A stretch of 64,000 nt of DNA, taken from the sequence record OR924452. One strand, 5' to 3'. Shown here piece by piece: positions 17,012 through 60,946 of the stretch (its first letter is position 1; every line of letters begins with the position of its first letter). The DNA is from Escherichia phage 241. The translations under genes and the position numbers were made by a program. The notes under the pieces are model-generated. The model was not told the origin of the DNA and searched no databases. It saw nothing but the letters and a program-made list of their open reading frames with translations.

Positions 17012-17158
17012 CTACACTGCCCACAGCAGTGCGGACGAACCTTCACTCAAAACCGGATGCGCCGAAGTGGGCAACTGTTTACCGGACTGATCGGGTAGAC
17101 CCAGGAGAGAGCAGGTAATCCCGATCAGGAGGATGAGGAGTAACATCATGTAAAACAT
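17012..17158 (-). CDS. Small hydrophobic peptide (48 aa), not in the ORF track
   Basis: Strong RBS GGGAGGG 6 nt before the ATG; translation MFYMMLLLILLIGITCSLLGLPDQSGKQLPTSAHPVLSEGSSALLWAV. Confidence 0.35.
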   Translation of the reverse strand: MFYMMLLLILLIGITCSLLGLPDQSGKQLPTSAHPVLSEGSSALLWAV

Positions 17159-17215
17159 AGTGTTCCCTCCCTTCCATGCAACTAACTTTACTGCATTTAT
17201 TTATTGAATAAAGCG

Positions 17216-17785
17216 TTATTTTATCAATTCTAACTTCACAACGCGGCGCAGAAGATAAACATATTCATTAGATGCTTCATGCGACATATAATGCGTAGAA
17301 GGGGTGGAATGGTTGTTCTGGGTTTCTTTTAACCCAACGCGTTCAGCCCAACCATTAATGGAGTTCCCATAAAACCCGATAATCGCGCCGAAATAAATGC
17401 GCTGGCTCTCTGGTTCTAAAATATAGTTGACAGTGAAACAGATGTCAGAACGAATAGATTCTAATTTTATACCGACCCGACCTTCAGAGAATTCGTTGCG
17501 AACATACAAATGACGAAAACGATCGCGTCGCGCTTGTGATGACTCTTCCAATTCTTGGCGAAGTGAGGATGTTGCATCGATATTAAATGAAAATGTCGGG
17601 TTTTGCAAATCGGTACGGGCTAACTCTAATGCTGATTCAACAACACGGCGGAAATTAATATTTTTGCCAGTCAGACGTTTCACTTCTTCTGTAATTGTTC
17701 CGAAAGGGATTTTTACAACACGTTCCCCTTCGTATTTTGCTAACAAAGGGATGATGTGTTTCATTATTGCTGTATTAATGTGCAT
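17216..17785 (-). CDS. Hypothetical protein
   Basis: 189-aa ORF flanked by AT-rich intergenic regions carrying the TTATTGAATAA motif. Confidence 0.55.
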   Translation of the reverse strand: MHINTAIMKHIIPLLAKYEGERVVKIPFGTITEEVKRLTGKNINFRRVVESALELARTDLQNPTFSFNIDATSSLRQELEESSQARRDRFRHLYVRNEFSEGRVGIKLESIRSDICFTVNYILEPESQRIYFGAIIGFYGNSINGWAERVGLKETQNNHSTPSTHYMSHEASNEYVYLLRRVVKLELIK

Positions 17786-17939
17786 TTCCTGAGCCTCGTC
17801 AAATTAATTAAATGTCCCCACTATTATATTGGGAATATGTTTATTGAATATAACTCCAAGAAAGGCCAATAAAATAATGACAGCGATTATTAATAGGTAA
17901 AAACTACTTTTCTACAACATCAAGAAACTGTATCTTAAC

Positions 17940-18090
17940 GCGGTGCCCTTCGAGTTGTGAGTGTTAACGAACAACGAGAAGCAGCCTCCATGGCTGCGGA
18001 ATGGGACTGCCTGTCAAGGCGGTGTTACGAGCGAGGGCGTCAGCCCCCTCGCGAGTATATTCGAATAAATTAACGCGCGAGAGCGTTTTG
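17940..18090. repeat. GC-rich CGAG-repeat noncoding element (copy A)
   Basis: Contains CGAGTTGTGAG, AACGAG and ACGAGCGA words shared with a second copy at about 59985-60050. Confidence 0.4.
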
Positions 18091-18101
18091 ATTCCCTTTG
18101 G

Positions 18102-18108
18102 CTAAATA
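18102..18108 (+). promoter_or_regulatory. Late-promoter-like CTAAATA motif upstream of gp6
   Basis: CTAAATATCTTCAA about 45 nt before the start codon; same core as the motifs before gp14, gp18, gp22 and the tailspike genes. Confidence 0.45.
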
Positions 18109-18148
18109 TCTTCAACACCATATTCAAACTCAGGTGATGGAGATTATC

Positions 18149-19930
18149 ATGGCCACGCAAACAGTTCCTTCACTCGACGTCAGAGCCTTTGAGTACATTA
18201 TCAAACAGCGAATGAAAGCTGATCCCACCTTTAAAGATTATGACTTTGAAGGTTCCGGTCTTAGTGCTATTATTCGTTTGTTGGCATCTGATGCGAACGC
18301 CATAGCCTTTATGCAGAACATGCTTAATGGTGAAGGCCATTTAAAAACAGCAAATCAACGTTCTAATGTTGGTTTGTCTGCTGCTTTTCTTTCTTATACC
18401 CCCGACAACTATCGGGCGGCATACATGTATGCCAACATCAAAGTAACGCCGTATGACGCCAGTACAGCTCCTAATGAGATCATTATGGACCGCCGTGTGA
18501 TGTTCGTTGGGGCGAAGGATGGGAGTTCCTACAACTTTACTGTTGAAAAACCCGTGTCTGCCACGTTGACAACAGACGGTTATTACATGTTCAACAACGT
18601 GAAACTGATTCAGGGTAACTGGTTGTACAAGACATATGATGTTGAAGGAAGCGCGATTTCGACTTATACGATACCTTCGGAAAATGTTGATATCAATCAT
18701 CTGGTCGTACAGGTACAGGAATCAGAGTCCTCTGATGTTTCAACGACATACCAGAGATACAACAGTCCGTTCGACCTGAATCAATATGCATATCTCTATT
18801 TTGTGGAATTAGGGATAGATGGCCTGTATGTGTTTGAGTTCGGAGATGGTTATCTGTCTCGCCGAGTAGAAGATGGCAACGTTATTTTCCTCCAGTATTT
18901 AGAAACTTCTGGTGCTGAAGGTAATGACATCACTAGTTTATCTTCCGCATCTTCGATAGGCGGGTTTAACCAGGTTGATATAGAATTGGTTTCCGAACGC
19001 AGTGCGGGTGGGGGAGATCCGGAATCTATTGAAGATACGAAGCGTCTGGCACCTTTGGCTTATCAGGCTGATGGCGCTGCCGTTACGGAAACCGATTACG
19101 GTGTTTTAACTGAACGCTTGTTTTCTAACGTCGCCCGTGCTAAATCATATGGCGGCGATACGCTTTCCCCTCCGGATTCTGGTTACGTTTATATCGCTGT
19201 GATACCATCTGTTGGAGAGACTCTTTCAGACGCAGAGAAGGCTGATATCGTTGCCGCGTTGGACAAATACAACGTTGGGTCCATCACCCCCAAAGTGGTA
19301 GATTCTGAGATCACATATATCCAAGTCGCCACGACTATATTTTGGGATCCGACTTCAACGGTTTATGTTGAAGAACAAATGAAAGTGGTGGTGGGCAATA
19401 GTATCACCAAATGGGGTGAAAACAATCTCGGTGGTTTTGATCAGTTATTCGACAAAGAGATATTGCAGGAAGCAATTACGAAAATGGAACGTTCCATTAA
19501 CTCAAATATCACGTCTGTCGGTTATAAACGTCATTTCAAACCTGATTATGGTGTGTTGGATAGCTTTACTTTCAGTTATGGGAGAAGCATTAAACCTGGT
19601 TCTGTGAAAATAACAGGGTTTAAACCGCTTCCGGCCGAAGTTGATTTCACTTATTATATGCGCGATGACAATGGCGATTTGAACATGTATAAAGTGAACA
19701 ACAACGACACCACTAAAGAATTTTTGGTTCAAAAGACTGGTGTTGTGGATTACGCCAACGGCGTCGTAGATCTTCAGCAGATTACGGTTTCAAACTATAA
19801 TACTGAAGGAGTAACGATCGTTGTGCTACCAGATGGCCTGAATCAGAATATACAGGCTTCACAAAACCAGGTATTCAAAATCGGTGATGTGGTTGTTACG
19901 CCAGAGGTGCGCTATGTCCAAAGATCTTAA
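18149..19930 (+). CDS. gp6: Baseplate wedge protein (T4 gp6-like)
   Basis: Conserved DYDFEGS segment and overall N-terminal similarity to T4 gp6; start reset from the track's TTG at 18098 to the ATG at 18149 with a GGAG RBS. Confidence 0.75.
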   Translation: MATQTVPSLDVRAFEYIIKQRMKADPTFKDYDFEGSGLSAIIRLLASDANAIAFMQNMLNGEGHLKTANQRSNVGLSAAFLSYTPDNYRAAYMYANIKVTPYDASTAPNEIIMDRRVMFVGAKDGSSYNFTVEKPVSATLTTDGYYMFNNVKLIQGNWLYKTYDVEGSAISTYTIPSENVDINHLVVQVQESESSDVSTTYQRYNSPFDLNQYAYLYFVELGIDGLYVFEFGDGYLSRRVEDGNVIFLQYLETSGAEGNDITSLSSASSIGGFNQVDIELVSERSAGGGDPESIEDTKRLAPLAYQADGAAVTETDYGVLTERLFSNVARAKSYGGDTLSPPDSGYVYIAVIPSVGETLSDAEKADIVAALDKYNVGSITPKVVDSEITYIQVATTIFWDPTSTVYVEEQMKVVVGNSITKWGENNLGGFDQLFDKEILQEAITKMERSINSNITSVGYKRHFKPDYGVLDSFTFSYGRSIKPGSVKITGFKPLPAEVDFTYYMRDDNGDLNMYKVNNNDTTKEFLVQKTGVVDYANGVVDLQQITVSNYNTEGVTIVVLPDGLNQNIQASQNQVFKIGDVVVTPEVRYVQRS

Positions 19931-22007: not shown

Positions 22008-25000
22008 ATGGCCAACAAACCAACACAGCCTCTTTTCCCTTTGGGTTTAGAAACTTCGGAGTCTTCTAACATAAAAGGCTTCAACAACTCCGGCACCATA
22101 GAGCATTCCCCTGGTGCAATATTGACGTTCCCTGAAGATACTGATGTTGCGGGTCTTCCATCTTCTGTGCGTTACAATCCTGTTAGTGATGAATTCGAAG
22201 GTTATTACGAAAATGGCGGGTGGCTGTCTTTGGGCGGCGGTGGAATACGCTGGGAAACGCTCCCATACGCTCCCTCTAGCAATTTGTTAGAAGGGCGCGG
22301 CTATCTCATTAATAACTCCACTGGGACTTCTACGGTGGTTCTTCCTTCCCCTACGCGCGTTGGTGACTCGGTTACAATTTGTGATGCCTATGGTAAATTC
22401 GCGACGTACCCATTGACTGTATCTCCAGCGGGAAATAACCTGTACGGCTCCACCGAAGATATGACGATATCCACCGATAACGTGTCGGCGACTTTCACTT
22501 GGTCTGGTGCTGAGCAGGGTTGGGTTGTTACATCTGGTGTTGGCCTAGGTCAAGGTCGTGTGTACAGTCGAGAGATTTTCACTCAAATTTTAGCATCTGA
22601 TACAAATGAAGTGACTCTCAACATCCCTCCGACAATTGTGGACGTGTACACTGATGGGAAACGCCTTACAGAATCCAAATATTCTTTAAATGGAAACGTA
22701 ATCACTTTCGACCCTTCTTTACCTGCTGGCACTGAATTGCAGGTAATAGAATATACTCCGATTCAGTTAGGTACTGGCGGCGGGGGTTCGGGCGCTTCTG
22801 CAATCACCTGGATTTACAATGGCGGATCCGCTATCGGCGGCGAAACCGAAATAACGCTAGACATCGTTGTAGATGATGTTCCGGCTATTGATATAAACGG
22901 GTCTCGTCAGTACAAAAATCTTGGATTCACGTTCGACCCATTGACGAGTAAAATCACTCTGACGCAAGAACTGGAACCAGAAGATGAAGTTGTTGTGGTT
23001 ATAAATGGGACACCAAACATTTATAACCAGATCGATCGTTCTTTACAGGAAGTTGCTCGCGCCTACAATTTTACAAATGCTCAAGTTATTTTGAGCAACG
23101 ATTATACTTCTGCGCTGGATAATAAAGTCGTTATTTATGATACAACATCCCAACGTTCTTGGGGGATTCCATCTGGAATTCCAGCAGGTTCTACAGTGGT
23201 TTCCGTCAATGGGGATCAACTGAAATACAAAAATGGATCAACTGAAACCACTGTTACATTGGTGAGTGTACCAGGTAGTGCAGAGAAGTTGAAGAACGAT
23301 CTGGCGTCGAACTCTGGCGCGGGCATGTTGAAAACTTCTAGAGGTGATACCGTAGAAGAAGAATTGACTTTTATTAATCAGAATATGGTCGTTCAAATTT
23401 CAGATTTCGCGAGCCTTAGAACTTTAGTGCCAGCCACAGCGGGCATCCGAGTCAAATTGAAAGGTTATTATTCTGGTTCTGAAATTGGTGGCGGAGAATT
23501 CATTTCCGTCGCTGGTGATGCTGTTGATGATGCTGGGATGATTGCTCGAGTGTCAAGCAGCTTCTATTGGAAGAGAATTATCGACAAACATATTACTCCT
23601 GGTATGTATGGCATCAAAGGGAATCTTCCAGAAGATCCGGCAGTGAAACTGAACGCTATGTTTACGGCTGCGGCTGCGGCTAACGCTTATGTCTTACTGA
23701 ACGATGTCGATACTCTGGTCTGTAAAAGCCCTGTCGTGATCCCAGCACATTCATTAGTGTACGGCAACAAGCGGACCATATTGAAACGTGATGCATCGTT
23801 GTCATATGCTAATGATTTCTTGACAATTATGAATGATTCATATGTCAAGGGGATCTATGTTGATGGTAGCCGTTTAGATTCTCAGACTCCGCTAGAAGCA
23901 GTTTTGGTGCGCATCGCTGGGAATGTGACTATCCATAAGAGCGAGATCCGAAACAATGCTGGCTATGGCGTTGTTGGTAACGCAGTCCCTGGCATTCGTA
24001 TCACCAAGAACATTTTTTCCAACTTCGCCAAAGGTTGTGTGGCTATGTTTGGCGACGGAACGGCGACGAGTGATGATCTGCAAATTAATGATAACAGATT
24101 CTTTAACCTGGGCGCGGGAACCATTTATGTTGGCGGTTACTCAAACTTCCTTGTCGACAAAAACGTCGGAAGAGGCACTTACGTGGGTTCTCCAGGAAAC
24201 CGTCTGTATGTTGTGACCAATACCAACGGGACTATCACCCAAAGCGCTGGGCCAGATTTTGGGGCGCTGAAAACGGGTATGTTCTTTGTATTGCCTGGTG
24301 GTTCTGAACATATGATAACGGCAGTCAACAGCCTTACAAGTGTGACAGTAACCCCAGCGCCTCCGTCGAATGCAACGGTTCGTGCAATTGCTGGGACAGG
24401 GGATCTTCTGGGCATCCAATCATGCTCCTACGGCACCATCAGCCGTAACAACCTGACCGATTGTGTGACTTACGGAACTGGTGGAGGCACGATGGAGGGG
24501 AGCACTCTGGGGTGCAATTATGTCACTTGGGAAGACAACTTCATCCGCAACACAGGTAAGAACGGAATCAACGTCGGGCAATCAGGCGCTGGGGTCGCCA
24601 CGTGTTCAATCCTGAGGAACACTCTGATACAGGTTGGTAACGGCGGTCAGGGCGTCGGCCCAGCGTATCTTCTGCCTTGGTTCGATACGGTAGGTATTGC
24701 TCTGTATCAGGGAAATCCAGGTTATATGGCGAATATGGACGTCAGTGATAACAACGTCTCTACATGGTCTGGCGATCTGAATGACGGCGCTGCTTGGTTT
24801 GGTATGAGCGGTTGTACGGAAGCCACTGTGACTTGTACAGGCAACAAATCTTCTGGTTATTCCGACGGCTATGTTCGTGGAGATATATTAGAAGTCACGT
24901 TGACAGGTTATGGTACAGGGGCGGCTGCGACTTCATTCGTTAGTGATGGTGAGTCTATACAGATAACCGTTCAAACAGGTACTTCACCAACAGCTTCTCC

Positions 25001-25181
25001 TTATTTTTCAGTGCGGAAGGCGATCCGCACCCGCCATCAACCGATGATAACGGCGCAGATCGTCACCACAACTGGGAACATGTCTCATTGTTGGGGCATG
25101 CAATCTAGTACAGCAGGAAACTGGATGGTGGGACAGAATACAACTCCTTCAGGGGTCACGACGTATTACGCAAAAGGGTAA
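22008..25181 (+). CDS. Tailspike protein (long form, multi-domain N-terminus, beta-helix-like C-terminal region)
   Basis: 1057 aa; N-terminal region shares a module with the 747-aa tailspike (RSLQEVARAYNF... versus RSIQEIARSANV...); Gly/Asn-rich repetitive C-terminal region. Confidence 0.75.
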   Translation: MANKPTQPLFPLGLETSESSNIKGFNNSGTIEHSPGAILTFPEDTDVAGLPSSVRYNPVSDEFEGYYENGGWLSLGGGGIRWETLPYAPSSNLLEGRGYLINNSTGTSTVVLPSPTRVGDSVTICDAYGKFATYPLTVSPAGNNLYGSTEDMTISTDNVSATFTWSGAEQGWVVTSGVGLGQGRVYSREIFTQILASDTNEVTLNIPPTIVDVYTDGKRLTESKYSLNGNVITFDPSLPAGTELQVIEYTPIQLGTGGGGSGASAITWIYNGGSAIGGETEITLDIVVDDVPAIDINGSRQYKNLGFTFDPLTSKITLTQELEPEDEVVVVINGTPNIYNQIDRSLQEVARAYNFTNAQVILSNDYTSALDNKVVIYDTTSQRSWGIPSGIPAGSTVVSVNGDQLKYKNGSTETTVTLVSVPGSAEKLKNDLASNSGAGMLKTSRGDTVEEELTFINQNMVVQISDFASLRTLVPATAGIRVKLKGYYSGSEIGGGEFISVAGDAVDDAGMIARVSSSFYWKRIIDKHITPGMYGIKGNLPEDPAVKLNAMFTAAAAANAYVLLNDVDTLVCKSPVVIPAHSLVYGNKRTILKRDASLSYANDFLTIMNDSYVKGIYVDGSRLDSQTPLEAVLVRIAGNVTIHKSEIRNNAGYGVVGNAVPGIRITKNIFSNFAKGCVAMFGDGTATSDDLQINDNRFFNLGAGTIYVGGYSNFLVDKNVGRGTYVGSPGNRLYVVTNTNGTITQSAGPDFGALKTGMFFVLPGGSEHMITAVNSLTSVTVTPAPPSNATVRAIAGTGDLLGIQSCSYGTISRNNLTDCVTYGTGGGTMEGSTLGCNYVTWEDNFIRNTGKNGINVGQSGAGVATCSILRNTLIQVGNGGQGVGPAYLLPWFDTVGIALYQGNPGYMANMDVSDNNVSTWSGDLNDGAAWFGMSGCTEATVTCTGNKSSGYSDGYVRGDILEVTLTGYGTGAAATSFVSDGESIQITVQTGTSPTASPYFSVRKAIRTRHQPMITAQIVTTTGNMSHCWGMQSSTAGNWMVGQNTTPSGVTTYYAKG

Positions 25182-25231: not shown

Positions 25232-27235
25232 ATGATTTCTCAATTCAATCAGCCACACGGCTCCACTTCAATATTTGTTAACAAACAATCTATCGCTCTG
25301 AATTTCGGTGTCACCAAAGACGAAGTTGTTTATTTCGCTGCTGGCATTGACCTTAGCGGATACAAAGTAATCTATGATGAATCGACTCAACGGGCTTATT
25401 CTCTTCCAGCTGGGATTGTTTCAGGAACTACTGCCATCAGTCTGGACGAAAAAGCCATTTTGACCCATTCGGCTGGCTCTGTTGATCTTGGAGAACTGGC
25501 TGTGCAACGCGGAGAGTTTGTTACTGTACCTGGTTCTTTTAATTTCGGCCATACCATTAATGTGAAAAATGAACTTCTTGTTCACGATGATGAAAAATAT
25601 CGATGGGATGGTTCTTTGCCAAAGGTAGTTGCCGCTGGTTCTACACCCGATAACTCAGGCGGTGTTGGCACAGGCGCGTGGGTTAGCGTTGGGGATGCGT
25701 CATTAAGGAATGAGTTAGCAAGTCCTTCAGGATCATCACTTTCAGGTCATTCAAATGGCCTTTCGGTAGCTGAAAACCTGAATAACCTCTTAGCAAAAGC
25801 ACAATTCATCACACCAGAGCAATTTTACAGCAATCATCCTGGTGAAACTGACTGGGCTGTGATGATTAACGAGGCATATTCCTATGCTCGCGATCATAAT
25901 AGTTCTGTGTTGCTTGCTAATGACTACCACACTGCGTCAACAATTGTTCACTTAGACGGTGTTACTGTTATTTGTACCGGGCGTATTATTGCATCGCCAA
26001 CAGGAACATATTCATACACCACCGCATTAGGTAATGAAGAGGAGGCTGCTTATGTAATTACTACTGAAAATGGTGTGTTTAACAATGCAAAATCTTCATC
26101 TCTTTACGGTCTAACATTGACATATACAGACAATAGAGAACCATCAGGATATACCGACCCTCACATACTAGCTAAAGGCGTTGTCATTACTGATACGGCT
26201 AATGTTTACATAAACAACCTGCAAACATTTGGGTTCTTAAATGGCGGTGTCGATGTTGGTGGAATTTCTGGTAATGGGTTTGAGATTGTAATAAATAAAT
26301 GTTTAGCCTGGATTTACGCATGGACGGATTCGGAGAAGATAGGATTCCGATGCAACGTTACAGACTCTACATTCTATGATGTCGTAACTGTAGCATATGG
26401 AATTGGAATTCATAATGTTAAAGGTGGTGGAAACGTCTATTTTAACGCGCACCCATGGGGGTATCCTTTAACCGCCGCTAATCTATACCCAAACAGACAG
26501 TGTAAAATTCAATTTCTGTTAACAGGGGGTGGCACAACTTTCTTCAGGCCGTATGCCGATACAATCACAAAATTAGACAGCAGTCAAAACGCTAGTCGGG
26601 CCAATGGTGGTGTTGGGTTTTACATCGACAACTGGAGAAATAAAATTATCGCAGCAGAGGTGGCGATACATAATGATGAGATTAGCACTGGAATGTCATT
26701 AGCTTACCTGGTAGGCGATGCCTCGCGTAATGAAATTGAATTCACAAACATAAACAACACATCGAAACTTGGGAATGAAAGAGTTTCATATGATTCAGGA
26801 TATCAAACCGCTTTATTTACAAACATTGTCAGAATTCCTGAGTATAACGCAGGTAATTTAAGCAACCTTACAGGAAGCATATCATTCAATGGTACAGGAG
26901 TTACTTCTTCTGGCACGTACAGTTTACGCAGAAGTGGTGAGTATATAGACATTCTTTTAACTATAGGAGTGACTTCAATATCAAGCCCATCCGGACCATT
27001 ATCAATCACGCTACCACGTGGTCTTGTGTGTAGATTTGGGCCATCAGCAGAGCCTGAGCAGACTTCGTGCTTTGGTAACATCAGTTCAATCAATATAGGT
27101 GTAATTGCAGTTCTAAACGGAAGCTCTATAGAGTTCTATTACAAGACAGCAAATGGGGCAAGGGTCCTTATTAATGCAGCTGGAGTATCAGTCGGGACTC
27201 TTGAGTTATTTTTAAGAGGTAAAATTTCGAATTAA
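25232..27235 (+). CDS. Tailspike protein (short N-terminal anchor type)
   Basis: 667 aa; first 160 aa are homologous to the N-terminus of the 826-aa tailspike; divergent C-terminal domain. Confidence 0.75.
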   Translation: MISQFNQPHGSTSIFVNKQSIALNFGVTKDEVVYFAAGIDLSGYKVIYDESTQRAYSLPAGIVSGTTAISLDEKAILTHSAGSVDLGELAVQRGEFVTVPGSFNFGHTINVKNELLVHDDEKYRWDGSLPKVVAAGSTPDNSGGVGTGAWVSVGDASLRNELASPSGSSLSGHSNGLSVAENLNNLLAKAQFITPEQFYSNHPGETDWAVMINEAYSYARDHNSSVLLANDYHTASTIVHLDGVTVICTGRIIASPTGTYSYTTALGNEEEAAYVITTENGVFNNAKSSSLYGLTLTYTDNREPSGYTDPHILAKGVVITDTANVYINNLQTFGFLNGGVDVGGISGNGFEIVINKCLAWIYAWTDSEKIGFRCNVTDSTFYDVVTVAYGIGIHNVKGGGNVYFNAHPWGYPLTAANLYPNRQCKIQFLLTGGGTTFFRPYADTITKLDSSQNASRANGGVGFYIDNWRNKIIAAEVAIHNDEISTGMSLAYLVGDASRNEIEFTNINNTSKLGNERVSYDSGYQTALFTNIVRIPEYNAGNLSNLTGSISFNGTGVTSSGTYSLRRSGEYIDILLTIGVTSISSPSGPLSITLPRGLVCRFGPSAEPEQTSCFGNISSINIGVIAVLNGSSIEFYYKTANGARVLINAAGVSVGTLELFLRGKISN

Positions 27236-27237
27236 AA

Positions 27238-27270
27238 TAACCCCGCTTCGGCGGGGTTTTGTTATTTTCT
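27238..27270 (+). terminator. Rho-independent terminator
   Basis: CCCCGCTTCGGCGGGG hairpin plus TTTTGTTATTTT. Confidence 0.8.
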
Positions 27271-29723: not shown

Positions 29724-32204
29724 ATGAATCCGCAATTTGCTCAACCGAAAGGTTCTACTTCAAAAGAAACGAACAAAGATAGCATCGCCCGTAAATTTGG
29801 GTGCAAAAAGTCGGAAGTCGTTTATGCCAAAGCGGGACAGTCTTTGTCTGGTTATAAAGTGATCTACGATAAGGTGTCTCAACGTGCCTACGCTCTCCCT
29901 TCTAACATTGGTGCTGTAACGGTCACCAGTTTAGTTGACGGCATCCTCACGCACTCTGGAGGCACTGTAGATTTGGGTGCGCTGGCGGTGTTGCGTGAGG
30001 AATACGTCATTCTGATAGAAAATTTCACTTCCGGATTTACGATTCGTGTCAAGAACGAAGTCGTGAGCGATGGAGTGAATTTATACCGCTGGGGTGGTGG
30101 TTTACCAAAGACTGTCAATGCTGGTGAAGATCTAGACTCCACTGGAGGGATTAGCGTGGGGGCGTGGATTAGCGCGGGCGTTGCTTCATTGAGGAACGAT
30201 CTTGCTGCTAATGATGGGTTTAAATTTATTGGGCAATGTCCAGATATAGCAACATTAAGGACAATTGAACCTGGCGTCAATGGTCAAAGAATTATATTAC
30301 GGCAACATACGGCTGGAACTGGTCTTGGCGGCGGTTCATTTAGGGCTGTAGTTGATGGCACCGGATATGAAGACGATAACGGAGTGGTTATTAAAACAAC
30401 TGGCGGTGCCGCCTGGCTACGCCTCAACGCAGATAGAGTTAATCCGTTTATGTTTGGGGCAACAGGTGGTGTGGACGACACTGTGGCTGTTCAGGCCAGC
30501 GTAGATAGTGGTCGAGCCACCGAACTAACTGCGCCATTCAACGTCACTTCCATTAAGCTGAAGAAAAAATCTGCAAGTATCTACGGGTCAGGTATGCACA
30601 TCTCAAGGCTAGTGCAAAAACCAGGGGTGGCTGGTGACTGTGTGGTTATTGAAGATACCTGCTCGCTTATTAAATTGGATAATTTCGGTATTTACGGAAC
30701 TGGTGCACAGCAAGATACTGCATTCACTGCGGGAACGCGTGGATTAGTTGTTCCAACCCCCACCGGACTTTCTACAAACTACCCATTTAACACATCAGCA
30801 GACCCACGAAGGGATTTGTGTATCAACAACGTGCATATTGCTGGGTTTGATGAGTATGGACTTAAAATCGAAAATGGAAACTTTTCAGTATCAACGACAA
30901 ACCTTCTTATTAACCACATTAATCAAGTTGGTGCGTATTGCGCAACAACAGACTGGACTTGGACAAATATCCAGATAAATACCTGTGGTAAGGAGTGTCT
31001 TGTCTTAGATGGCGCTGGCAACGCCCGTATTATTGGTGCTAAACTTATTTGGGCTAACTGGCAACCATATGCTGCTTCAGGTAGTTACCCTGGATTGAAG
31101 ATAAACAATTGTCAAAACATTACTATGAGTGCTACAGAGGTTCAGGACTGCGGTTCTGATGGCATAATCTTTAAAGACAGTTATTCTATTTCAATTTCAG
31201 GACTAAACACGAACAGAAACAGCATAAACAGCAACTACTCATATAACAACTGCGTATTTGATAGTTGCGACGTTACAATTGATGGGTTCGTTGGTCTTAA
31301 CTATTCTTCAAACTCAGGTTCGGGGATACCTTCCAGTGCCGCTAATTTTAGATTCCTGTCTTCAGATTGTACCGTAGTCGTAAACGGAAATGTAGAGTCA
31401 GAGTATCTCGGTATCTTGTTCCGTGGTGATAACAATATTATTCAGCCAACGAATTCAGACCTTAAAATAAATGGATTGATTAATTACGATAAAACAAGCA
31501 TTACATTTCAAAATGTAATGCCTTCATTCGATGGTGTTAGTACCACTCCTGTATTCGTTCCCGCCCCATCAATTATAGGCCAGGCAAACGGACTTCGTTT
31601 GTCACAAGGAAATAAAGACAAAATCAGGTATACAACATCCAGAGTTCCAGCTGGTGGCGTGTCACTATCTGCAATTCTAATACCAACAATAACTGGCGCT
31701 GAAACGTTTAATATTATTGTTCTGGGTACTGGATTTGGCTCTACCAACAATAGCCTCTACTTTCAGTTAAATGTCGACTCATCAGGAAATCAAAGCGTTG
31801 CATTACTTATCAGTGGCGATGGTCAAACACAAGTTCTTTCTGGGGTGATTCCGGATGAATTTAAGATACAAAGTGGAGTTCCGTACCATTTTGCATTGGG
31901 TGCTGCTCCTGGGAGATTCTGGTGGAGTATATTAAATATTCAAACAGGTTCACGTATAAGAAGGGCATTTAGACGTGATTACTTAAGCGCTCCATTTAAC
32001 AGCTTATTTGGTAATGATGTTTCTATAAATTTCTTCTCAGGTGAAGGTTCATCAGATGAAGCATGCTCTGGGATTGGGGCAAAAGTTTATGCTGGAGCAT
32101 TCAGTTCTGAATCTGATTATTGCGCAAGCAGATACTACAGTTTGTACAATCCTATAGACCCATCTAAAATGTTTAGCTATAGAACACTTGATGGCTCCAT
32201 ATAA
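29724..32204 (+). CDS. Tailspike protein (short N-terminal anchor type)
   Basis: 826 aa; AGGAG RBS; N-terminal 160 aa paralogous to the 667-aa tailspike; beta-helix-like repeats. Confidence 0.75.
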   Translation: MNPQFAQPKGSTSKETNKDSIARKFGCKKSEVVYAKAGQSLSGYKVIYDKVSQRAYALPSNIGAVTVTSLVDGILTHSGGTVDLGALAVLREEYVILIENFTSGFTIRVKNEVVSDGVNLYRWGGGLPKTVNAGEDLDSTGGISVGAWISAGVASLRNDLAANDGFKFIGQCPDIATLRTIEPGVNGQRIILRQHTAGTGLGGGSFRAVVDGTGYEDDNGVVIKTTGGAAWLRLNADRVNPFMFGATGGVDDTVAVQASVDSGRATELTAPFNVTSIKLKKKSASIYGSGMHISRLVQKPGVAGDCVVIEDTCSLIKLDNFGIYGTGAQQDTAFTAGTRGLVVPTPTGLSTNYPFNTSADPRRDLCINNVHIAGFDEYGLKIENGNFSVSTTNLLINHINQVGAYCATTDWTWTNIQINTCGKECLVLDGAGNARIIGAKLIWANWQPYAASGSYPGLKINNCQNITMSATEVQDCGSDGIIFKDSYSISISGLNTNRNSINSNYSYNNCVFDSCDVTIDGFVGLNYSSNSGSGIPSSAANFRFLSSDCTVVVNGNVESEYLGILFRGDNNIIQPTNSDLKINGLINYDKTSITFQNVMPSFDGVSTTPVFVPAPSIIGQANGLRLSQGNKDKIRYTTSRVPAGGVSLSAILIPTITGAETFNIIVLGTGFGSTNNSLYFQLNVDSSGNQSVALLISGDGQTQVLSGVIPDEFKIQSGVPYHFALGAAPGRFWWSILNIQTGSRIRRAFRRDYLSAPFNSLFGNDVSINFFSGEGSSDEACSGIGAKVYAGAFSSESDYCASRYYSLYNPIDPSKMFSYRTLDGSI

Positions 32205-32207
32205 CAA

Positions 32208-32236
32208 AAACCCCGCTTCAGCGGGGTTTTTATTTC
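32208..32236 (+). terminator. Rho-independent terminator
   Basis: CCCCGCTTCAGCGGGG hairpin plus TTTTTATTTCT. Confidence 0.8.
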
Positions 32237-32296: not shown

Positions 32297-35200
32297 ATGC
32301 AATCTACAAATCTAAACCGTCGCCCGTATTGGGACGACTGGAATCCTGGAAAACGGTTTTCACGGATTCTTTTTCGCCCGATGCCTATTAAAGTTCAGAC
32401 TCGTGAACTAAACCAGATGCAGACTATTCTGCAAGATCAGATTGAAAAGCTGGGAAACCATTTGTTCAAAGATGGATCTATGGTTATCCCTGGTGGTCTG
32501 ACGATTACCAACGCCGCTGTATCTATGAAATTCACTCTGGCTGGCGGTACTGAGTTTACTGATCTGGAAGGGATTACTGAACTTTATGTTCTGGGAAAAG
32601 ACAATAATGCCAAAGCGCGTGTGCTATCTCTTGAACGTGATCTGTCTGCTCCGGATACGATGTTGGCCATCCTTGAAATGACAGAAGTGGGTAATGCAGA
32701 TGGCTTCCACGTCAACGACAATCTGTATTTCCAAACCTATGACGTCAATGACAACTTCATTCGTATTGGTTATGGTATCGCAGCTGCGGTGACTGGTTCT
32801 ATCGTCGCTCGTATGACGAAGGGCGTTTACTTCATTCGTGGGATGTTCCTTGATGTTGATGACGCGACTCTCATCGTCGATAAAACTTCAAACACTTCTT
32901 CCCATCGCGTCGGGTTTAAAGTCACTGAAACCATCGTGACTGAATCTGAAGACGAATCCCTTTATTCAAACGCTCAGGGAACGATTAACTCCAAAGCCCC
33001 AGGCGCTCATCGTCTTCGAATAGATCTGGTCTTATCTCGATTTGATTATGATGCTGTGGTTGAAGACTTTGTTGAACTGGCCAAAGTTCGTGATGGTAAA
33101 ATCCAGTCTATGGTGACTCAGTCCACCTATAATATTCTGGAAGACACGTTGGCTCAACGGACGTATGAAACCAACGGCGATTACAACGTTTCAACGCATC
33201 AGATCGACATCCGCGAACACCTGAAAGTCAATAACAATGGTGGTGTATTCAATGCTGCTGATGGCGGCGACGAAAGTAAATTCGTGTCTGTAATGAAACC
33301 AGGTATTTCCTATGTTCGCGGTCGTCGTATCGAAAACGTCGGGGAAGAGTTGGTGATCGTTGACAAGGCACGGGATACCGATGTCCTGAATAACACGCCT
33401 GTCGCAGTTGCTACAGGGAATTATCTGGTCACCAAGAACTCCAAAGGTGTTCCAGTAATATCTCGCACTGTGCGATACAAGTTATTGAACGCATCTGGCG
33501 CTGCTCAAGCCACGGCGTTGTGTATATCCGCTGAACGCAATTCAACTGAATTCCGTCTGTACATGCGTGATTTGGTTGTGACTGGGGACGCGTCCACTAT
33601 CACCAAAGTGTCTTATGAAGAAAGTGGTATCACCATGTTCTCTGCTGAACTGGAATCCAACCAGTTTAACCAGAGTTCTATGGTAGACTTGATCTTCTCT
33701 CTTCCGGTCTTCGGTGTTAAAACATTAGCGCCAACAGGTTCCGTGGATATCAACTACACAGTCCTCAGAACTTATAAGGTGACGCTAGACAGCAGCGGTT
33801 CTGGTTCTATTTCAGCTCCGCTGGGATATAGTTTCTCTCCTGAATTTTCGTTGTATTCTTCTGCGAAATCCGATGGTTCAGAAGCGCAATTTGATATCTC
33901 TGGCTCTTTGTCACTGACTGGTTCTCCGGTGGGTTCGGCTTTGCAGATTTCCCTGGGTAGCGGTAATGCTAACCAGTCAATCAATTTGCTGGCACTGATG
34001 ATCCGCACTACGGCCACGATCAAAACGAAGACGATAACTGAAACCACAGAGTCTGTGACTTTTACTTCCCAAACCAGTAGACCTCTGGCAAATCACGACG
34101 GCTGGAAATTGGTATCTGTCAAAAATGATACTGGCGCGGACGTGACTTCGAGCTTCACCCTCGACGGTGGCCAACGCGATGCGGGATATTACAAGGCTAA
34201 TCTGTTATCCACCGCTGGAGCCATTTCAGGGACGTATACGGTGGTGTATCAATACTTCGCGCATAGTTCGGGGGATTTCTTCTCAGCGGATTCGTATACT
34301 TCAATGGATTACAAAGATATCCCGAATTATACATCCTCCACATCAGGGGCGGTGTATGGTTTGGCCGATAGCCTTGATTTCCGTCCGAAAATTACCAACG
34401 GGACATCCGACACTGATATGGTTCGCCCGAATACGGCTGTCATCCTGGACACAGAGTATTATTTGCCTCGTATCGACGCGATTTATCTGGCAGATAATGG
34501 CGTGTTTGGTGTAGCCCGTGGCATCAGTTCCAACAACCTGGCGTCCCCAGCAATACCTGCAAACTCCATGCGTTTGTATGAACTGTTGATTCCCCCATAC
34601 ACGCCGAATATCGATGATATACAAATTCGCACCATCGATAACCGTCGTTATACGATGCGTGATATCGGTAAACTGGAAACGCGTATTTCCAACGTTGAAT
34701 ACTACACCTCTCTGTCGCAGCTGGAATCTTCGGCGATGACACAACAGGTATTTGATCCAATCACGGGTAATCCGCGATTCAAAAACGGTATCGCCGCCGA
34801 TCCATTCAAAGACTTCCGTCTTATTGATGATCTGTCTGAAGATTGGATGGGATCTATCGATACGGAAAATGGACGTTTGCGTCCGTTTGTTCAACAGAAC
34901 GCCGTTGACATGACTCCAGTAGGCTGGAACAAAGTGATGGATGGTATGGTGGTTTGTAACTACACGCCTGAAATCTCCGTGAACCAAGAATACGCGACGA
35001 CGACGATCAACGTTAACCCGTATGCTGTATTCAACTGGGAAGGTTTCTTGAAGATTAACCCGACCACGGATTACTGGTTTGAAAACTACTATGTCGCCCC
35101 GCGTGTTATCAATGAAACGATCAACACTCGTGGTACTGTACAAGAAGGTTCGGTGTACGGGACGTGGCGTACTGTTTCTGTTTCTGATCGTGTTTGGGAG

Positions 35201-37135
35201 CCGCATGGCGCTGGTGGTGTGTGGTGGGGATACCGCTATCGCACGACTGTTTCTGCCCGTGATGTCACCACATACACATACACGGACAAAACAACCACGA
35301 CCATGACTGGCGAACAGATTGTGGAAACGCAGGTTATCCCATACATGCGCGAAATTGATATTTCTTTCGACGCTTCTGGGTTGCGACCTTTCACTCGCAT
35401 GTATGCATTCTTCTCAGGTCGTGATGTGAATCTGTATTGCAAGCCGAATGGTGGTAATTTTGGTGACCCAATCACCACTGATGCCAATGGCGCAGTCAAA
35501 GGCGTGTTCCGCGTTCCTCAGAACGATACGATCAAGTTCAACACAGGTGACAACGTGTTCCGCTTGACGGATAGCCCCGTTGACAGTAAATCTGCGGATG
35601 ATACGCTGACTAATGCTGAAATTGTTCACAAATCTTTCGGTAAGAAACAAGGGATTCAAAAGACCTTTGTCAATACTCGAGTTCTGGGTTATACCGCAAG
35701 CACCAGCACCGAAACCAGCACTTCTGAAGTTGTGGTCGACCAATGGCGTGATCCAATTGCCCAATCGTTTATGGTGGCAACTAAGATCGGTGGTGAATAT
35801 ATCGAAGGCGTGGAAGTATTCTTCTCCACCAAGTCACGTGATGTTCCGATCACCCTGGAAATTCGCGAGATGGAGAATGGCTTACCATCCCATACCGTCA
35901 TAACTCGTAAAACTTTGAACCCATCTGAGGTGACGATCTCTACAGACTCGTCTGGCGGTACGAAGTTCACCTTCGATTATCCGGTATACTTGCAAGCATC
36001 GACTGAGTTTGCTATTGTTCTGTTGGCGAATACTCAGGATTACAACGCGTATATCGCGGAAATGGGCAAGAAAAACCTTCTGTCCAACGAATATATCGCC
36101 AAACAACCGTATACAGGGGTGTTCTTCACTTCTTCAAACGGTTCTACATGGTCTCCCAACCAGATGGCAGATATGAAGTTCCGTGTTTATCGTTGTAACT
36201 TTGCTGCTGGTCAGAACGTTGTAACATTTGATCCGAAACTTGGACCGAAACAACGTCCGCTGGGGTTGAACACTCTCAACTGTGTGAGCGGGTCTTCTGT
36301 CGTGACCGTGTTTGCACCTGGTCATGGTTTGGTTGCTGGGAACAATGTCACTCTGTCTGAATTGACAGGCGGTTGTGGCTTTACTCCTGAACAACTTAAC
36401 AAAACGTTTACTGTGACAGATGCGAGCTATACTTCATTCAAGATTGACGTCGGTTCAGCAGCAGACAGCAACGGGCAAATCGGCGGGGATAATGCTTCGT
36501 TCTTGGGCAATTATCTGGTTGATATGTTCTATGCGAGTGTTACAAATTCAGCTCTGGAAGGTTCGATTCTGAAATTGGAATACCGTTATCGCGATGCCAC
36601 TTCAAATTCTATGTCTGATTGGGCTGAGTTTGAAACTGACACTGACGTGGCGTTGCCGACTGAAGGGATCTATCGTCAGGTTGGGGATTTCCAGATCCGA
36701 GCCACCATGACGCGCAGTGAAAACAACGTGTACACCGCTCCAATGATTGATGGCGATGACCTGAGCGTAATCTTCAACTCATACGGCGTGGATCCATTTG
36801 AAGATGTCTTCAAATATGTGACAAAAGACATCGGATTTGATAACCCATGTTCGACTGTGAAGTTGTTCTTTGGTGCAATGCTCCCATCTCAGTCTTCTAT
36901 GAAGGTGCAGGTGAAACTTCTTAGAGCAGGTCAGGAGATGGATAGTGTGGCTTGGGAAGATGTTACTCCAACGTCGCCTCTGGTCAACGACGGTTCTACA
37001 TTCTTTGAATATGAATACGACAAGACTGTGGCGAGCAATAACCCGTTTGTTGGCCTGAAAGTCCGAGCGCTTGTACGGGGGAACCGCGTTGCTCCTCCAT
37101 CATTCAAAGACTTCCGTCTTATTGCTCTGGCATAA
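32297..37135 (+). CDS. Giant virion structural protein (1612 aa), probably baseplate or tail associated
   Basis: Single uninterrupted 4.8-kb ORF in the structural operon, between the tailspikes and the neck genes. Confidence 0.8.
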   Translation: MQSTNLNRRPYWDDWNPGKRFSRILFRPMPIKVQTRELNQMQTILQDQIEKLGNHLFKDGSMVIPGGLTITNAAVSMKFTLAGGTEFTDLEGITELYVLGKDNNAKARVLSLERDLSAPDTMLAILEMTEVGNADGFHVNDNLYFQTYDVNDNFIRIGYGIAAAVTGSIVARMTKGVYFIRGMFLDVDDATLIVDKTSNTSSHRVGFKVTETIVTESEDESLYSNAQGTINSKAPGAHRLRIDLVLSRFDYDAVVEDFVELAKVRDGKIQSMVTQSTYNILEDTLAQRTYETNGDYNVSTHQIDIREHLKVNNNGGVFNAADGGDESKFVSVMKPGISYVRGRRIENVGEELVIVDKARDTDVLNNTPVAVATGNYLVTKNSKGVPVISRTVRYKLLNASGAAQATALCISAERNSTEFRLYMRDLVVTGDASTITKVSYEESGITMFSAELESNQFNQSSMVDLIFSLPVFGVKTLAPTGSVDINYTVLRTYKVTLDSSGSGSISAPLGYSFSPEFSLYSSAKSDGSEAQFDISGSLSLTGSPVGSALQISLGSGNANQSINLLALMIRTTATIKTKTITETTESVTFTSQTSRPLANHDGWKLVSVKNDTGADVTSSFTLDGGQRDAGYYKANLLSTAGAISGTYTVVYQYFAHSSGDFFSADSYTSMDYKDIPNYTSSTSGAVYGLADSLDFRPKITNGTSDTDMVRPNTAVILDTEYYLPRIDAIYLADNGVFGVARGISSNNLASPAIPANSMRLYELLIPPYTPNIDDIQIRTIDNRRYTMRDIGKLETRISNVEYYTSLSQLESSAMTQQVFDPITGNPRFKNGIAADPFKDFRLIDDLSEDWMGSIDTENGRLRPFVQQNAVDMTPVGWNKVMDGMVVCNYTPEISVNQEYATTTINVNPYAVFNWEGFLKINPTTDYWFENYYVAPRVINETINTRGTVQEGSVYGTWRTVSVSDRVWEPHGAGGVWWGYRYRTTVSARDVTTYTYTDKTTTTMTGEQIVETQVIPYMREIDISFDASGLRPFTRMYAFFSGRDVNLYCKPNGGNFGDPITTDANGAVKGVFRVPQNDTIKFNTGDNVFRLTDSPVDSKSADDTLTNAEIVHKSFGKKQGIQKTFVNTRVLGYTASTSTETSTSEVVVDQWRDPIAQSFMVATKIGGEYIEGVEVFFSTKSRDVPITLEIREMENGLPSHTVITRKTLNPSEVTISTDSSGGTKFTFDYPVYLQASTEFAIVLLANTQDYNAYIAEMGKKNLLSNEYIAKQPYTGVFFTSSNGSTWSPNQMADMKFRVYRCNFAAGQNVVTFDPKLGPKQRPLGLNTLNCVSGSSVVTVFAPGHGLVAGNNVTLSELTGGCGFTPEQLNKTFTVTDASYTSFKIDVGSAADSNGQIGGDNASFLGNYLVDMFYASVTNSALEGSILKLEYRYRDATSNSMSDWAEFETDTDVALPTEGIYRQVGDFQIRATMTRSENNVYTAPMIDGDDLSVIFNSYGVDPFEDVFKYVTKDIGFDNPCSTVKLFFGAMLPSQSSMKVQVKLLRAGQEMDSVAWEDVTPTSPLVNDGSTFFEYEYDKTVASNNPFVGLKVRALVRGNRVAPPSFKDFRLIALA

Positions 37136-44967: not shown

Positions 44968-44973
44968 AAGATC

Positions 44974-45000
44974 AACCCCGCTTCGGCGGGGTTTTCCTTT
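44974..45000 (+). terminator. Rho-independent terminator
   Basis: AACCCCGCTTCGGCGGGGTT hairpin plus TTTCCTTT. Confidence 0.8.
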
Positions 45001-51310: not shown

Positions 51311-51330
51311 TCAACAGGTTTTGATAAACA

Positions 51331-51358
51331 AACCCCGCCATGTGCGGGGTTTTTCTTT
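51331..51358 (+). terminator. Rho-independent terminator
   Basis: CCCCGCCATGTGCGGGG hairpin plus TTTTTCTTT. Confidence 0.8.
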
Positions 51359-59516: not shown

Positions 59517-59517
59517 T

Positions 59518-59862
59518 TCATTTGTCTTGGTTCACATAGGCGGGGGTCGCCTCGCCTTCTTTGTCAGAACCGAATAAACAACCCATCGTGCTGATGCATT
59601 GTTGTAGAACTTCTGGATCCAGAATCTGACACAACAGTTGTTCATTACATTCCAGCAATGGGACAACTTTCACTTCCCGCGCCTGTCCTTGTTGAATAAT
59701 GCCGACATATAGACCTTTGGTGTCTGGCAGTAACGGGATCACCATCATTGGTGTCACAACAAACTTAGAAGTGCAATAGAGGCTGTGTAGGTAAACACCT
59801 TTCAATGCCGGACATGCTTCTTGTTCTTCCCCCACTGCATATAAACCCACGAATTGTTTCAT
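59518..59862 (-). CDS. Hypothetical Cys-containing protein
   Basis: 114-aa ORF convergent with uvsW. Confidence 0.45.
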   Translation of the reverse strand: MKQFVGLYAVGEEQEACPALKGVYLHSLYCTSKFVVTPMMVIPLLPDTKGLYVGIIQQGQAREVKVVPLLECNEQLLCQILDPEVLQQCISTMGCLFGSDKEGEATPAYVNQDK

Positions 59863-59979
59863 ATATTACTCTCTTGTTAGTAAACATGACTACATAATAA
59901 TTTCATGCTGTGTTTAGACCAAATAAATTATTTTGCTAGTTGAATAAAAATCGCTTTCTTGTTGAACAAACCGTGCGTA

Positions 59980-60060
59980 ATATACGAGTTGTGAGCTTTG
60001 CGAGCAACGAGTATTATCACGAGCGAAGCGAGTAGACTAATAAAGAAAGGTTTATTAAAA
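59980..60060. repeat. CGAG-repeat noncoding element (copy B) in the divergent region before gp45
   Basis: ACGAGTTGTGAG, CAACGAG and CACGAGCGAAGCGAG words shared with the element at 17940-18090. Confidence 0.4.
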
Positions 60061-60197
60061 CAGAATACTATAAATGCCGTCAGGCATTTATTTATCGCGC
60101 GTAGGGCATTTTAACACTTGTTCTATAACTGCAAACACGCGATACTAATTTGCGTCAAACATGACTTGAACCCCACTATATTTTGAGGATATAAACA

Positions 60198-60866: not shown

Positions 60867-60946
60867 TCAATATCGCTTCGGCGCTTTATTATCGGTGGCG
60901 GGGTTATTATCCCGCCCTTTGAAATGTTTTATCTAAAGAGGCTGCA

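Follow-up and report, generated by a model that had tools for sequence, protein, structure and literature searches.

Why the word CGAG recurs in two short non-coding segments of Escherichia phage 241 (sequence record OR924452), one upstream of gp6 and the other upstream of gp45, is the question addressed here for a stretch of 64,000 nucleotides of this phage, referred to below as the window. A preliminary description of the same DNA had pointed to the words shared by both segments and had proposed that they could be iterons or a transcription-factor site. The first segment, locus A, lies in the divergent intergenic region 17786–18148, between an open reading frame (ORF) of 189 amino acids on the minus strand and gp6 (ATG at 18149); the second, locus B, lies in the divergent intergenic region 59863–60197, between a minus-strand ORF of 114 amino acids and gp45 (ATG at 60198). 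According to the annotation of relatives, gp6 is a baseplate wedge gene and gp45 the sliding clamp gene. Positions 17000–19000 of the window are 99.8% identical to Salmonella phage Marshall (KF669653), a Vi01-like Kuttervirus of the family Ackermannviridae, and positions 59400–60900 are 98.9–99.5% identical to Marshall, Vi01 and other Vi01-like phages. The analysis reveals that the CGAG words are arms of conserved hairpins and that a third, related cassette exists upstream of gp5. Probably this three-copy family of the Ackermannviridae represents a small structured RNA, or an upstream leader, made from a dedicated promoter, with the loops of its hairpins acting as recognition sites for a protein or a polymerase.

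CGAG enrichment and identification of a third cassette

The 11-mer CGAGTTGTGAG noted previously is indeed present as an exact copy at 17951–17961 and 59985–59995 and at no other site in the window, and the words AACGAG and ACGAGCGA are found in both segments. The 11-mer taken alone was nevertheless dismissed as evidence because such a repeated pair is within chance: with at most one mismatch allowed, the expectation is 1.16 matches, and two or more arise in 35 of 100 shuffles. The density of CGAG itself is beyond chance at both loci, with six occurrences in 17929–18078 and five in 59928–60077 against 0.29 expected per 150 nt (Poisson tails of 6e-7 and 1.3e-5, respectively). These are the two most CGAG-dense 150-nt intervals of the 64-kb window, where the next one holds three, and also of the whole 156-kb Marshall genome, where the next one holds four; in 40 dinucleotide shuffles of the window six occurrences were never reached, and five were reached three times. 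The best local alignment between A and B is a 28-nt block, CGAGTTGTGAG-N5/6-CGA(A/G)CAACGAG, with a score of 29 compared with 20.3 ± 2.7 for shuffled sequences (equalled in 5 of 300 shuffles), and the two loci stay collinear beyond it through ACGAGC, GCGAGTA and AATAAA. The spacing of the CGAG words is irregular, the successive distances being 24, 53, 4, 20 and 26 nt in A and 16, 7, 12 and 9 nt in B.

Screening of the whole genome for further copies, as the preliminary description had suggested, led to a third cassette. A BLAST search of locus A against Marshall recovered 49 nt (17984–18032 of the window) on the minus strand at 111350–111398 with 94% identity. This locus C, outside the window, occupies approximately 111300–111460 on the minus strand of KF669653 (L004 11300–11460), within an unannotated gap of 510 nt upstream of gp5, the gene for the baseplate hub and lysozyme. 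Its tail matches locus B (ACGAGC...GCGAGTAG...AATAAAG). The Marshall genome contains exactly three cassettes, at 25.8, 68.0 and 111.4 kb, one of which lies near uvsY, uvsW and gene 45.

The CGAG words pair with each other in tandem G·A hairpins

When 5'-CGAG-3' is placed antiparallel to a second 5'-CGAG-3', the facing residues are C-G, G·A, A·G and G-C, that is, a tandem G·A loop between two Watson-Crick pairs. Tandem 5'-GA-3' loops closed by C-G or U-A form sheared pairs (PMC5900564). Two hairpins of the window are built in this manner at each locus; unless stated otherwise, features are given for the plus strand. The first hairpin, M1, extends over 17948–17981 at locus A (CUUC-GA-GUUGU-GA-GU[GUUA]AC-GA-ACAAC-GA-GAAG) and over 59982–60014 at locus B (AUAC-GA-GUUGU-GA-GC[UUU]GC-GA-GCAAC-GA-GUAU), with two tandem G·A internal loops in either case. 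The plan is identical in both copies (4 bp, G·A loop, 5 bp, G·A loop, 2 bp and terminal loop), and the outer and inner pairs differ between them. The second hairpin, M2, contains one tandem G·A loop and is found at 18026–18057 in A (UACGAGC...GCGAGUA), where in Kuttervirus it is lengthened by an extra stem, GAGGGC[GUCA]GCCCCCUC, and at 60019–60033 in B as the mini-hairpin ACGAGC[GAA]GCGAGU. Minimum-free-energy folds calculated with ViennaRNA contain M1 with its two 2x2 loops at both A and B (z = -3.4 and -2.8, respectively), together with M2. In total there are three tandem G·A motifs in cassette A, three in B and one in C.

These helices are backed by comparison of relatives, for which alignments of about 60 loci from IMG/VR and GenBank were built. 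Among eight distinct variants of M1 all 88 pair cells are standard, four of the eleven pairs have changed on both sides, and one pair alternates between U-A and U·G; controls in which the arms were slid are 22–66% paired, and the pairing score was reached in none of 500 shuffles. A covariance model of M1 (R1) finds locus A with 61 bits (E=2e-16) and locus B with 50.9 bits, and in the Marshall genome it detects A and B only. M2 is 98% paired, with compensatory changes in two of its four pairs. Its two halves are 3–4 nt apart in most copies, 12 nt apart in P46FS4 and separated by the 18-nt stem extension in Kuttervirus A; the loop is accordingly GAA, GUA, UUCA, AAC, AUA, a 12-nt sequence or that extension. 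In Aglimvirinae, M2(B) reads AUGAGC[GAA]GCGAAU, a C-G pair being replaced by U-A, and at M1(A) of Agtrevirus and Limestonevirus UGAG...CGAA stands where Kuttervirus has CGAG...CGAG, so that the apparent loss of two CGAG words amounts to one compensatory change from C-G to U-A. Over all tested helices of M1, M2 and the pseudoknot domain described below, slid controls are 7–66% paired. A kink-turn, in which a three-nucleotide bulge precedes tandem sheared G·A pairs, is not formed, for the G·A pairs lie in symmetric 2x2 loops with Watson-Crick pairs on both sides and no bulge. A hammerhead-like core in M2 of Aglimvirinae (CUGAUGAGCGAAGCGAAU) was also considered and rejected, as other genera have ACGAG there and it is not conserved.

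A pseudoknot domain and the modular build of the cassettes

Between M1 and M2 locus A carries a further domain. Hairpin H1, GCAGCC[UCCAU]GGCUGC at 17981–17997 (domain 17981–18005; G17981 also takes part in the last pair of M1), is followed by a sequence AUGG at 18001–18004 that pairs with residues 17988–17991 of the H1 loop to form a pseudoknot, and then by hairpin H2 at 18006–18023, ACUGCCU[GUCA]AGGCGGU. The same domain is found at locus C, where it lies between the 5' end and M2. Comparison of copies A and C shows two pairs of H1 with changes in both partners. The pseudoknot helix is 100% paired, and one of its pairs is A-U in eight sequences and C-G in five. All seven pairs of H2 are likewise 100% paired, with a series U-A, U·G and C-G at one pair and a change from C-G to U-A at another. 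Taken together, H1, the pseudoknot and H2 are 96% paired over 13 distinct sequences, with compensatory changes in 5 of 17 pairs. A covariance model of the H1-H2 domain (R2) detects A and C only in the Marshall genome. The cassettes are thus modular: A consists of M1, the pseudoknot domain and M2; B of M1 and M2; and C of the pseudoknot domain and M2.

The preliminary description had held that neither segment encodes a plausible ORF, and we reach the same conclusion. The sole ATG-started frame common to A and C, MA(A/L)EWDCLSRRCYE..., has no Shine-Dalgarno sequence, and its start sits in a hairpin loop. This start is CTG in Klebsiella and Serratia phages, where the pseudoknot partner changes in compensation, and indels of 2 and 7 nt disrupt the frame. 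Two further candidates involving this domain were rejected. Pairing of the H1 loop (CCUCCAU) with the ribosome-binding site of gp6 (AUGGAG) is contradicted by non-compensatory changes in Klebsiella phages, and a circularly permuted mimic of 5S rRNA, with H2 resembling helix I, scored 14 compared with 15.3 ± 2.3 in shuffles. It may also be mentioned that the 5' leader of locus C holds a CCUCGC, and an alternative structure in which it pairs with the CGAG words of M2 is conceivable.

Conservation and distribution

The preliminary description had named restriction of the similarity to these two loci, with no conservation in relatives, as the outcome that would speak against its proposal. Alignment across relatives gives the opposite picture, both loci being kept in more than 270 phage records of at least five genera, and the view of a repeated, non-coding and functional-looking element at both segments is borne out by enrichment and conservation alike. 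The three intergenic regions are present in 270–280 phage records (Kuttervirus, Agtrevirus, Limestonevirus, Taipeivirus and Serratia phages), the identity of the intergenic regions of distant relatives to those of A, B and C being 73–83%. Between genera the core of locus A, from AAACTACTTTTCTA to GGCGGT, is 84–93% identical, compared with 75–80% for the coding sequence of gp6 and 63–69% for the intergenic DNA to the left of the core. The order is also retained, since the cassettes always lie upstream of gp6, gp45 and gp5 across the genera down to Miltonvirus. In Miltonvirus KNP4, whose gp45, gp6 and gp5 proteins are 55%, 65% and 74% identical to the window's proteins, respectively, CGAG likewise reaches its three highest densities genome-wide upstream of gp6, gp45 and gp5. 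There M1 is built from other helix sequences, with 7–8 bp between the G·A loops and an unchanged loop architecture; the outer helix of M1(B) is AUUC...GAAU, one outer pair having changed on both sides. The H1-H2 domain is absent from KNP4. This pattern indicates that the M1 and M2 hairpins with their tandem G·A loops are the universal core and that the three positions are ancestral.

Outside the Ackermannviridae we found no counterpart. The patterns of M1 and H1 give two matches each per Ackermannviridae genome in IMG/VR and no credible ones elsewhere, the matches on three short GC-rich contigs being chance hits in unrelated sequence, and a Vibrio phage with a 36%-identical gp45 leaves no space for a cassette. 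A search for a host homologue or mimicry gave no match in 5,426 E. coli genomes, and among 185,579 species genomes the M1 pattern has four exact matches in unrelated taxa, where about nine are expected by chance according to our estimate. At the Rfam gathering threshold the window yields three tRNAs only; in six loci, which represent A, B and C of four genera, no match up to E=10 overlaps a cassette. The searchable literature contains no mention of the cassette sequences, nor was a Kuttervirus transcriptome found in it. With no Rfam, bacterial or literature counterpart, the cassettes are a candidate for a new RNA family. Two sets of records under other names do hold Kuttervirus sequence, namely those of Enterococcus phage Efm 3-10 (OR844944/OR844942) and of Pseudomonas phage Pa-sanjiao (MN871475); the 49-nt cassette segment is 94% identical and gp45 99% identical in them, and these records are probably mislabelled or mixed assemblies.

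A promoter-like motif before each cassette

Each of the three cassettes is preceded by a motif, M0, whose layout of A-tract, YTTTYCTW box, N16 and TAnnnT is common to all of them and to all genera. At locus A, M0 covers 17893–17936 and consists of the A-tract GGTAAAAAC, the box CTTTTCTA at 17907–17914, a 16-nt spacer and the -10-like TATCTT at 17931–17936. At locus B it covers 59940–59983, with the A-tract TAAAAAT, the box CTTTCTTG at 59954–59961, a 16-nt spacer that holds the invariant palindrome TTGTTGAACAA, and the -10-like TAATAT at 59978–59983; layout and spacing of this copy are kept in KNP4. A weight matrix scores the M0 copies of A, C and B at 33, 27.5 and 23.8 bits, respectively, compared with at most 16.4 elsewhere in the genome and a maximum of 13.6 in the shuffled genome. 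With such scores confined to the three cassettes, M0 is a part of the cassette rather than a general promoter type. A general class of phage promoters had been considered on the basis of a loose regular expression, which matched few other intergenic sites, and was rejected, the full motif being confined to the cassettes. M0 may act as the promoter of the cassette. Locus C is in addition preceded by a terminator and by an extended -10 promoter-like sequence, TGnTATAAY.

The idea of transcriptional regulation put forward in the preliminary description thus holds in so far as a promoter-like motif stands before each copy; the reading as a transcription-factor site finds no support. The analogy it drew with the middle-mode regulation of gene 45 in T4 fails. 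The MotA box of T4, (a/t)(a/t)(a/t)TGCTTtA, is centred at -30 and lies 11–13 bp from the -10 sequence TAnnnT. In M0 the YTTTYCTW box is 16 nt from TAnnnT, and a GCTT is present at locus B only, at least 19 nt from the hexamer, so that no MotA box is found at the T4 spacing. The Marshall annotation lists no MotA or AsiA, a search dedicated to them not having been made, and Kutter et al. (2011) reported no homologues of either in ViI-like phages (PMC3184105).

After the hairpins, all copies show an A/T-rich stretch, and several terminator-like structures follow. At locus A a weak terminator-like hairpin, AACGC[GCGAGA]GCGUU then UUGAUU, is located at 18072–18093 and overlaps the shared CGCGCGAG motif (M4). 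It is not conserved beyond Kuttervirus, which makes it a doubtful 3' end of the putative RNA at A. At locus B the linker after M2 holds a hairpin made of A-U pairs only at 60038–60057, UAAUAAA[GAAAGG]UUUAUUA, which is part of the fold and lies in a variable region. The same linker carries a 19-nt unit, TTATTATCTTTAATAAAGG, three times in tandem in Escherichia phage A221 (L068 ~470–560) and once in relatives. Further downstream, the hairpin AUAAAUGCC[GUCA]GGCAUUUAU at 60070–60091 is terminator-like in both directions and contains TATAAATG; it is conserved in Kuttervirus and Aglimvirinae (with the loop GAA) and not in Klebsiella or Serratia phages. Locus C has a conserved, covarying hairpin followed by UAUAAUAUU.

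The downstream genes have promoter candidates of their own. A late-promoter-like CTAAATA is found at 18102–18108, between cassette A and the ATG of gp6, and is kept in all genera; for gp5 the late motif ATAAATA lies between cassette C and the ATG. The late mRNAs of gp6 and gp5 therefore do not carry the folded element in their 5' leaders. In Marshall most late structural genes have (A)CTAAATA or ATAAATA at a distance of 30–45 nt upstream of their ATG, and ACTAAATA occurs seven times in the window, always on the plus strand (21963, 27404, 32257, 38772, 43022, 47803 and 49021), compared with 1.9 expected. This distribution makes the motif a strong candidate for the late promoter, of gp55 type, in this family, which the paper on phage CBA120 of 2011 had not identified (PMC3184105). 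For gp45, a candidate sigma-70-like promoter, TTGTTC-17-GATACT, is located at 60118–60146 within a block conserved in all genera; KNP4 has TTGCAT-17-TATAAT at this site.

Nature of the folded molecule and proposed mechanism

The two strands of the cassettes are not equivalent. The antisense strand folds worse than the sense strand (-48.4 compared with -60.8 kcal/mol for A, and -22.3 compared with -29.5 kcal/mol for B; antisense z of -1.95 and -1.35, respectively). This is explained by the composition of the helices, which are rich in G·U pairs that become A·C on the opposite strand, while the G·A loops become C·U there. At all three loci the strand that folds is the sense strand of the downstream gene, and folding of this strand is supported by the compensatory changes, by the G·U intermediates and by the hairpin insertions. 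The asymmetry, together with the pseudoknot and the insertion of an entire hairpin, argues for RNA as the folded molecule.

We infer from these observations that M0 would drive transcription towards the downstream gene and that the sense strand of the following 55–150 nt would fold, as RNA rather than DNA, into the hairpins built from CGAG. The product could stand alone as a small transcript or form an upstream leader, terminating ahead of the promoter of the gene itself or reading into it. In the simplest interpretation, a single protein, or RNA polymerase, would bind at each of the repeated, two-fold symmetric tandem G·A loops. Within this RNA interpretation, the role that we would tentatively place first is that of a small RNA acting in trans or binding a protein; action in cis on the transcribing polymerase, in the manner of the put RNAs discussed below, appears rather doubtful, as does, to a similar degree, a primer or origin RNA.

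Several observations weigh against the interpretation of the cassettes as RNA made from M0. A sigma-70 scan misses M0, whose -35 is poor. At locus B the -10-like hexamer and the 5' arm of M1 have 2 nt in common, with the first CGAG immediately after; transcription starting about 7 nt past the hexamer would therefore lose the outer helix of M1 and leave the inner half. Despite this conflict the pairing of the outer helix is flawless in Kuttervirus, and in KNP4 the helix has changed on both sides. It is possible that the RNA begins further upstream, that the hexamer is a -10-like pause element within a longer RNA, by analogy with putL, or that the fold forms on DNA. M2(B) on its own is thermodynamically marginal (-1.7 kcal/mol). 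A clear hairpin with a U-rich tail is seen only at B, in Kuttervirus and Aglimvirinae, and is weak at A. Folded single-stranded DNA, too, can contain tandem G·A and G·T pairs; covariation alone is therefore not proof of RNA, and the fold could also form on single-stranded sense DNA. Moreover, independent compensatory events are few, given the relatedness of the sequences and the exchange between A and C.

Comparison with known systems and alternative explanations

The interpretation of the preliminary description, an array of sites on duplex DNA (iterons or an operator) for an initiator or a transcription factor, would be in line with five to six repeats of a short word in about 100 bp of divergent intergenic DNA, with the very high sequence conservation and with the invariant palindrome TTGTTGAACAA inside M0(B). 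It nevertheless appears very improbable. The words are antiparallel helix arms, which also distinguishes them from the iterons of T4 oriE. Iterons are direct repeats of a unit of some 17–22 bp at regular, helically phased intervals; no family of direct repeats was found at A or B. Their spacing is irregular and unlike between the two loci, and the two words of M2 are mostly 9–10 bp apart but 24 bp apart in Kuttervirus A, where the insert is itself a stem; such variation in distance makes no difference to a hairpin but does to a half-site on duplex DNA. The words change in a compensatory manner across the predicted helices, Miltonvirus has other helix sequences with the same loop architecture, and the strands differ in their folding. 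Equally improbable is that the cassettes are promoter-hairpin units spread by recombination, in which CGAG would have no specific role and the hairpins would serve to terminate transcription, as stabilisers or as substrates of recombination. The promoter-stem-loop cassettes of T4-type phages, which are numerous and mobile between positions, do resemble them as repeated intergenic modules of promoter and hairpin that exchange sequence. Indeed, the 49 nt shared by A and C at 94% identity, in cassettes that have otherwise diverged, point to gene conversion between them; the build is modular, and the apex of M1(B) in Aglimvirinae resembles that of locus A. In contrast to those mobile units, there are only three copies here, syntenic across genera and endowed with conserved non-canonical loops and a pseudoknot. 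Their retention at the same three genes in genera with 55–74% protein identity indicates stable inheritance and not spread, and the invariance of the G·A loops amid covarying helices indicates selection on the loops themselves.

Two other explanations keep the transcript and differ in what it does; both are unlikely in our judgement. According to one of them, the cassettes are origins of replication comparable to oriF (uvsY) and oriG (gene 34) of T4, at which the M0 transcript, held as an R-loop, would prime the leading strand; the hairpins, formed by the RNA, the displaced sense DNA or both, would stabilise the R-loop or recruit the helicase loader, and the A/T-rich stretch found after M2 in all copies would unwind. 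Origins of T4 combine a MotA-dependent middle promoter with an unwinding element. The likeness lies in the replication genes of T4 type (including UvsW, helicase loader, primase and RNase H) and in a promoter-like motif, here specific to the cassette, followed by non-coding DNA in few copies, three per genome. Furthermore, the sense strand is purine-rich, a property that favours RNA-DNA hybrids (the core of B is 63% A+G, with G twice C), and folding of displaced DNA would lift the conflict over the transcription start at locus B, if only partly. Locus A coincides with the global minimum of the cumulative GC skew of the 156-kb genome; this minimum is confounded with a switch in gene orientation, and B and C are no extremes of the skew. 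In Marshall, the minimum of the cumulative skew is at 24–26 kb (about 16100–18100 of the window) and the maximum at about 133 kb, both at orientation switches. T4 origins need a promoter and an easily unwound element and are not known to need a conserved folded domain, and a covarying pseudoknot rich in G·U pairs would rather be expected of an RNA that functions as such. The DNA directly after M0 at locus A is 56% G+C. In addition, MotA and AsiA, on which the T4 comparison would lean, are not reported in ViI-like phages (PMC3184105).

The other explanation is a put-like RNA acting in cis, in which nascent M1 and M2 would bind their own RNA polymerase and make it resist the hairpins or terminators that follow, so that it reads into the gp45, gp6 and gp5 operons earlier than, or irrespective of, their own promoters. 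Antitermination of the put type works on downstream terminators through the beta' zinc-binding domain. The related putL and putR RNAs of phage HK022 are each about 70 nt long, contain two stem-loops with non-canonical pairs and are located downstream of an early promoter; they need no protein factor, and putL has a -10-like pause element (PMC9378689). The cassettes share with them the occurrence of several related copies, the non-canonical stem-loops just past a promoter, here a promoter-like motif, the -10-like hexamer and the terminators thereafter, here terminator-like hairpins. Locus B comes closest in outline, with two such stem-loops right after the promoter-like motif (M1 and M2 take up 52 nt after M0, compared with the roughly 70 nt of put, while A and C carry extra or different modules), an overlap with the -10-like hexamer and then a terminator-like hairpin. 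No middle-mode regulators are known in ViI-like phages, and antitermination has been proposed for such phages (PMC3184105). On the other hand, there is no sequence similarity to put, nor sequence or Rfam similarity to other known antiterminator RNAs; stem I of put has a triplex and not CGAG/CGAG loops, and A and C add the pseudoknot domain. Each of the three downstream genes has a promoter candidate of its own past the cassette. Early read-through would bring no evident benefit to the two of them that are late baseplate genes, and the terminator-like hairpin is missing in some genera.

For the small structured RNA that we favour, two more comparisons are of interest. The structural motif itself has been described in r(GGCGAGCC)2, a tandem sheared G·A loop with the identical (5'-CGAG-3')2 arrangement closed by C-G, the closing pair being U-A in Aglimvirinae (PMC5900564); that molecule is a structural building block, whereas the cassettes present the motif recurrently and in a conserved genomic setting. 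The CsrB and RsmZ RNAs are comparable in logic only, as paralogous small non-coding RNAs that display the same short motif several times in hairpins; in the cassettes this motif is the CGAG/CGAG internal loop and not a GGA hairpin loop.

The fold is unusual in that its helices are arranged around repeated, self-pairing CGAG words and combined with a covarying pseudoknot. The genome paper on CBA120 reported that early or middle signals were not identifiable (PMC3184105), and the cassettes offer an entry point to the timing of transcription or to the initiation of replication in the Ackermannviridae, whose Vi01-like members are widely used as candidates for biocontrol or therapy against Salmonella, E. 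coli O157, Klebsiella and Dickeya. It can be speculated, as a distinctly unlikely extension, that the tandem G·A RNA replaces the MotA/AsiA middle mode, either as an R-loop origin and loading point of the gp45 clamp or as a rider on RNA polymerase. If so, the three cassettes would be the missing control points of Ackermannviridae development, and in the R-loop variant the clamp would be loaded beside the late-type motifs CTAAATA (gp6), ATAAATA (gp5) and TATAAATG (gp45). Should the hairpins be only stabilising or terminator structures, their interest would be modest.

Other features of the window

The proteins encoded by the minus-strand neighbours of loci A and B fall into PHROG families without an assigned function, and no Pfam domain is present in them. 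Between 14780 and 16460 of the window, in a stretch of about 2.4 kb beside the tRNA cluster, there are five long inverted repeats (14780/14873, 15094/15162, 15561/15674, 15841/15950 and 16377/16438), with arms of 21–26 nt that are 86–100% complementary and 39–92 nt apart. The corresponding region of Marshall (23091–25089) has no annotated gene, and no Rfam family matches the stretch; the repeats may represent additional structured RNAs or tRNA genes in decay. Between late genes, at 27224–27265, 32194–32235, 44959–45000 and 51317–51358, there is a family of intrinsic terminators with nearly the same hairpin, CCCCGC-TTCG/TTCA-GCGGGG, and a T run after it. Finally, an exact direct repeat of 24 nt, CATTCAAAGACTTCCGTCTTATTG, is found at 34803–34826 and 37101–37124, 2.3 kb apart, and in Marshall this sequence lies just upstream of the ATAAATA motif before gene 43.

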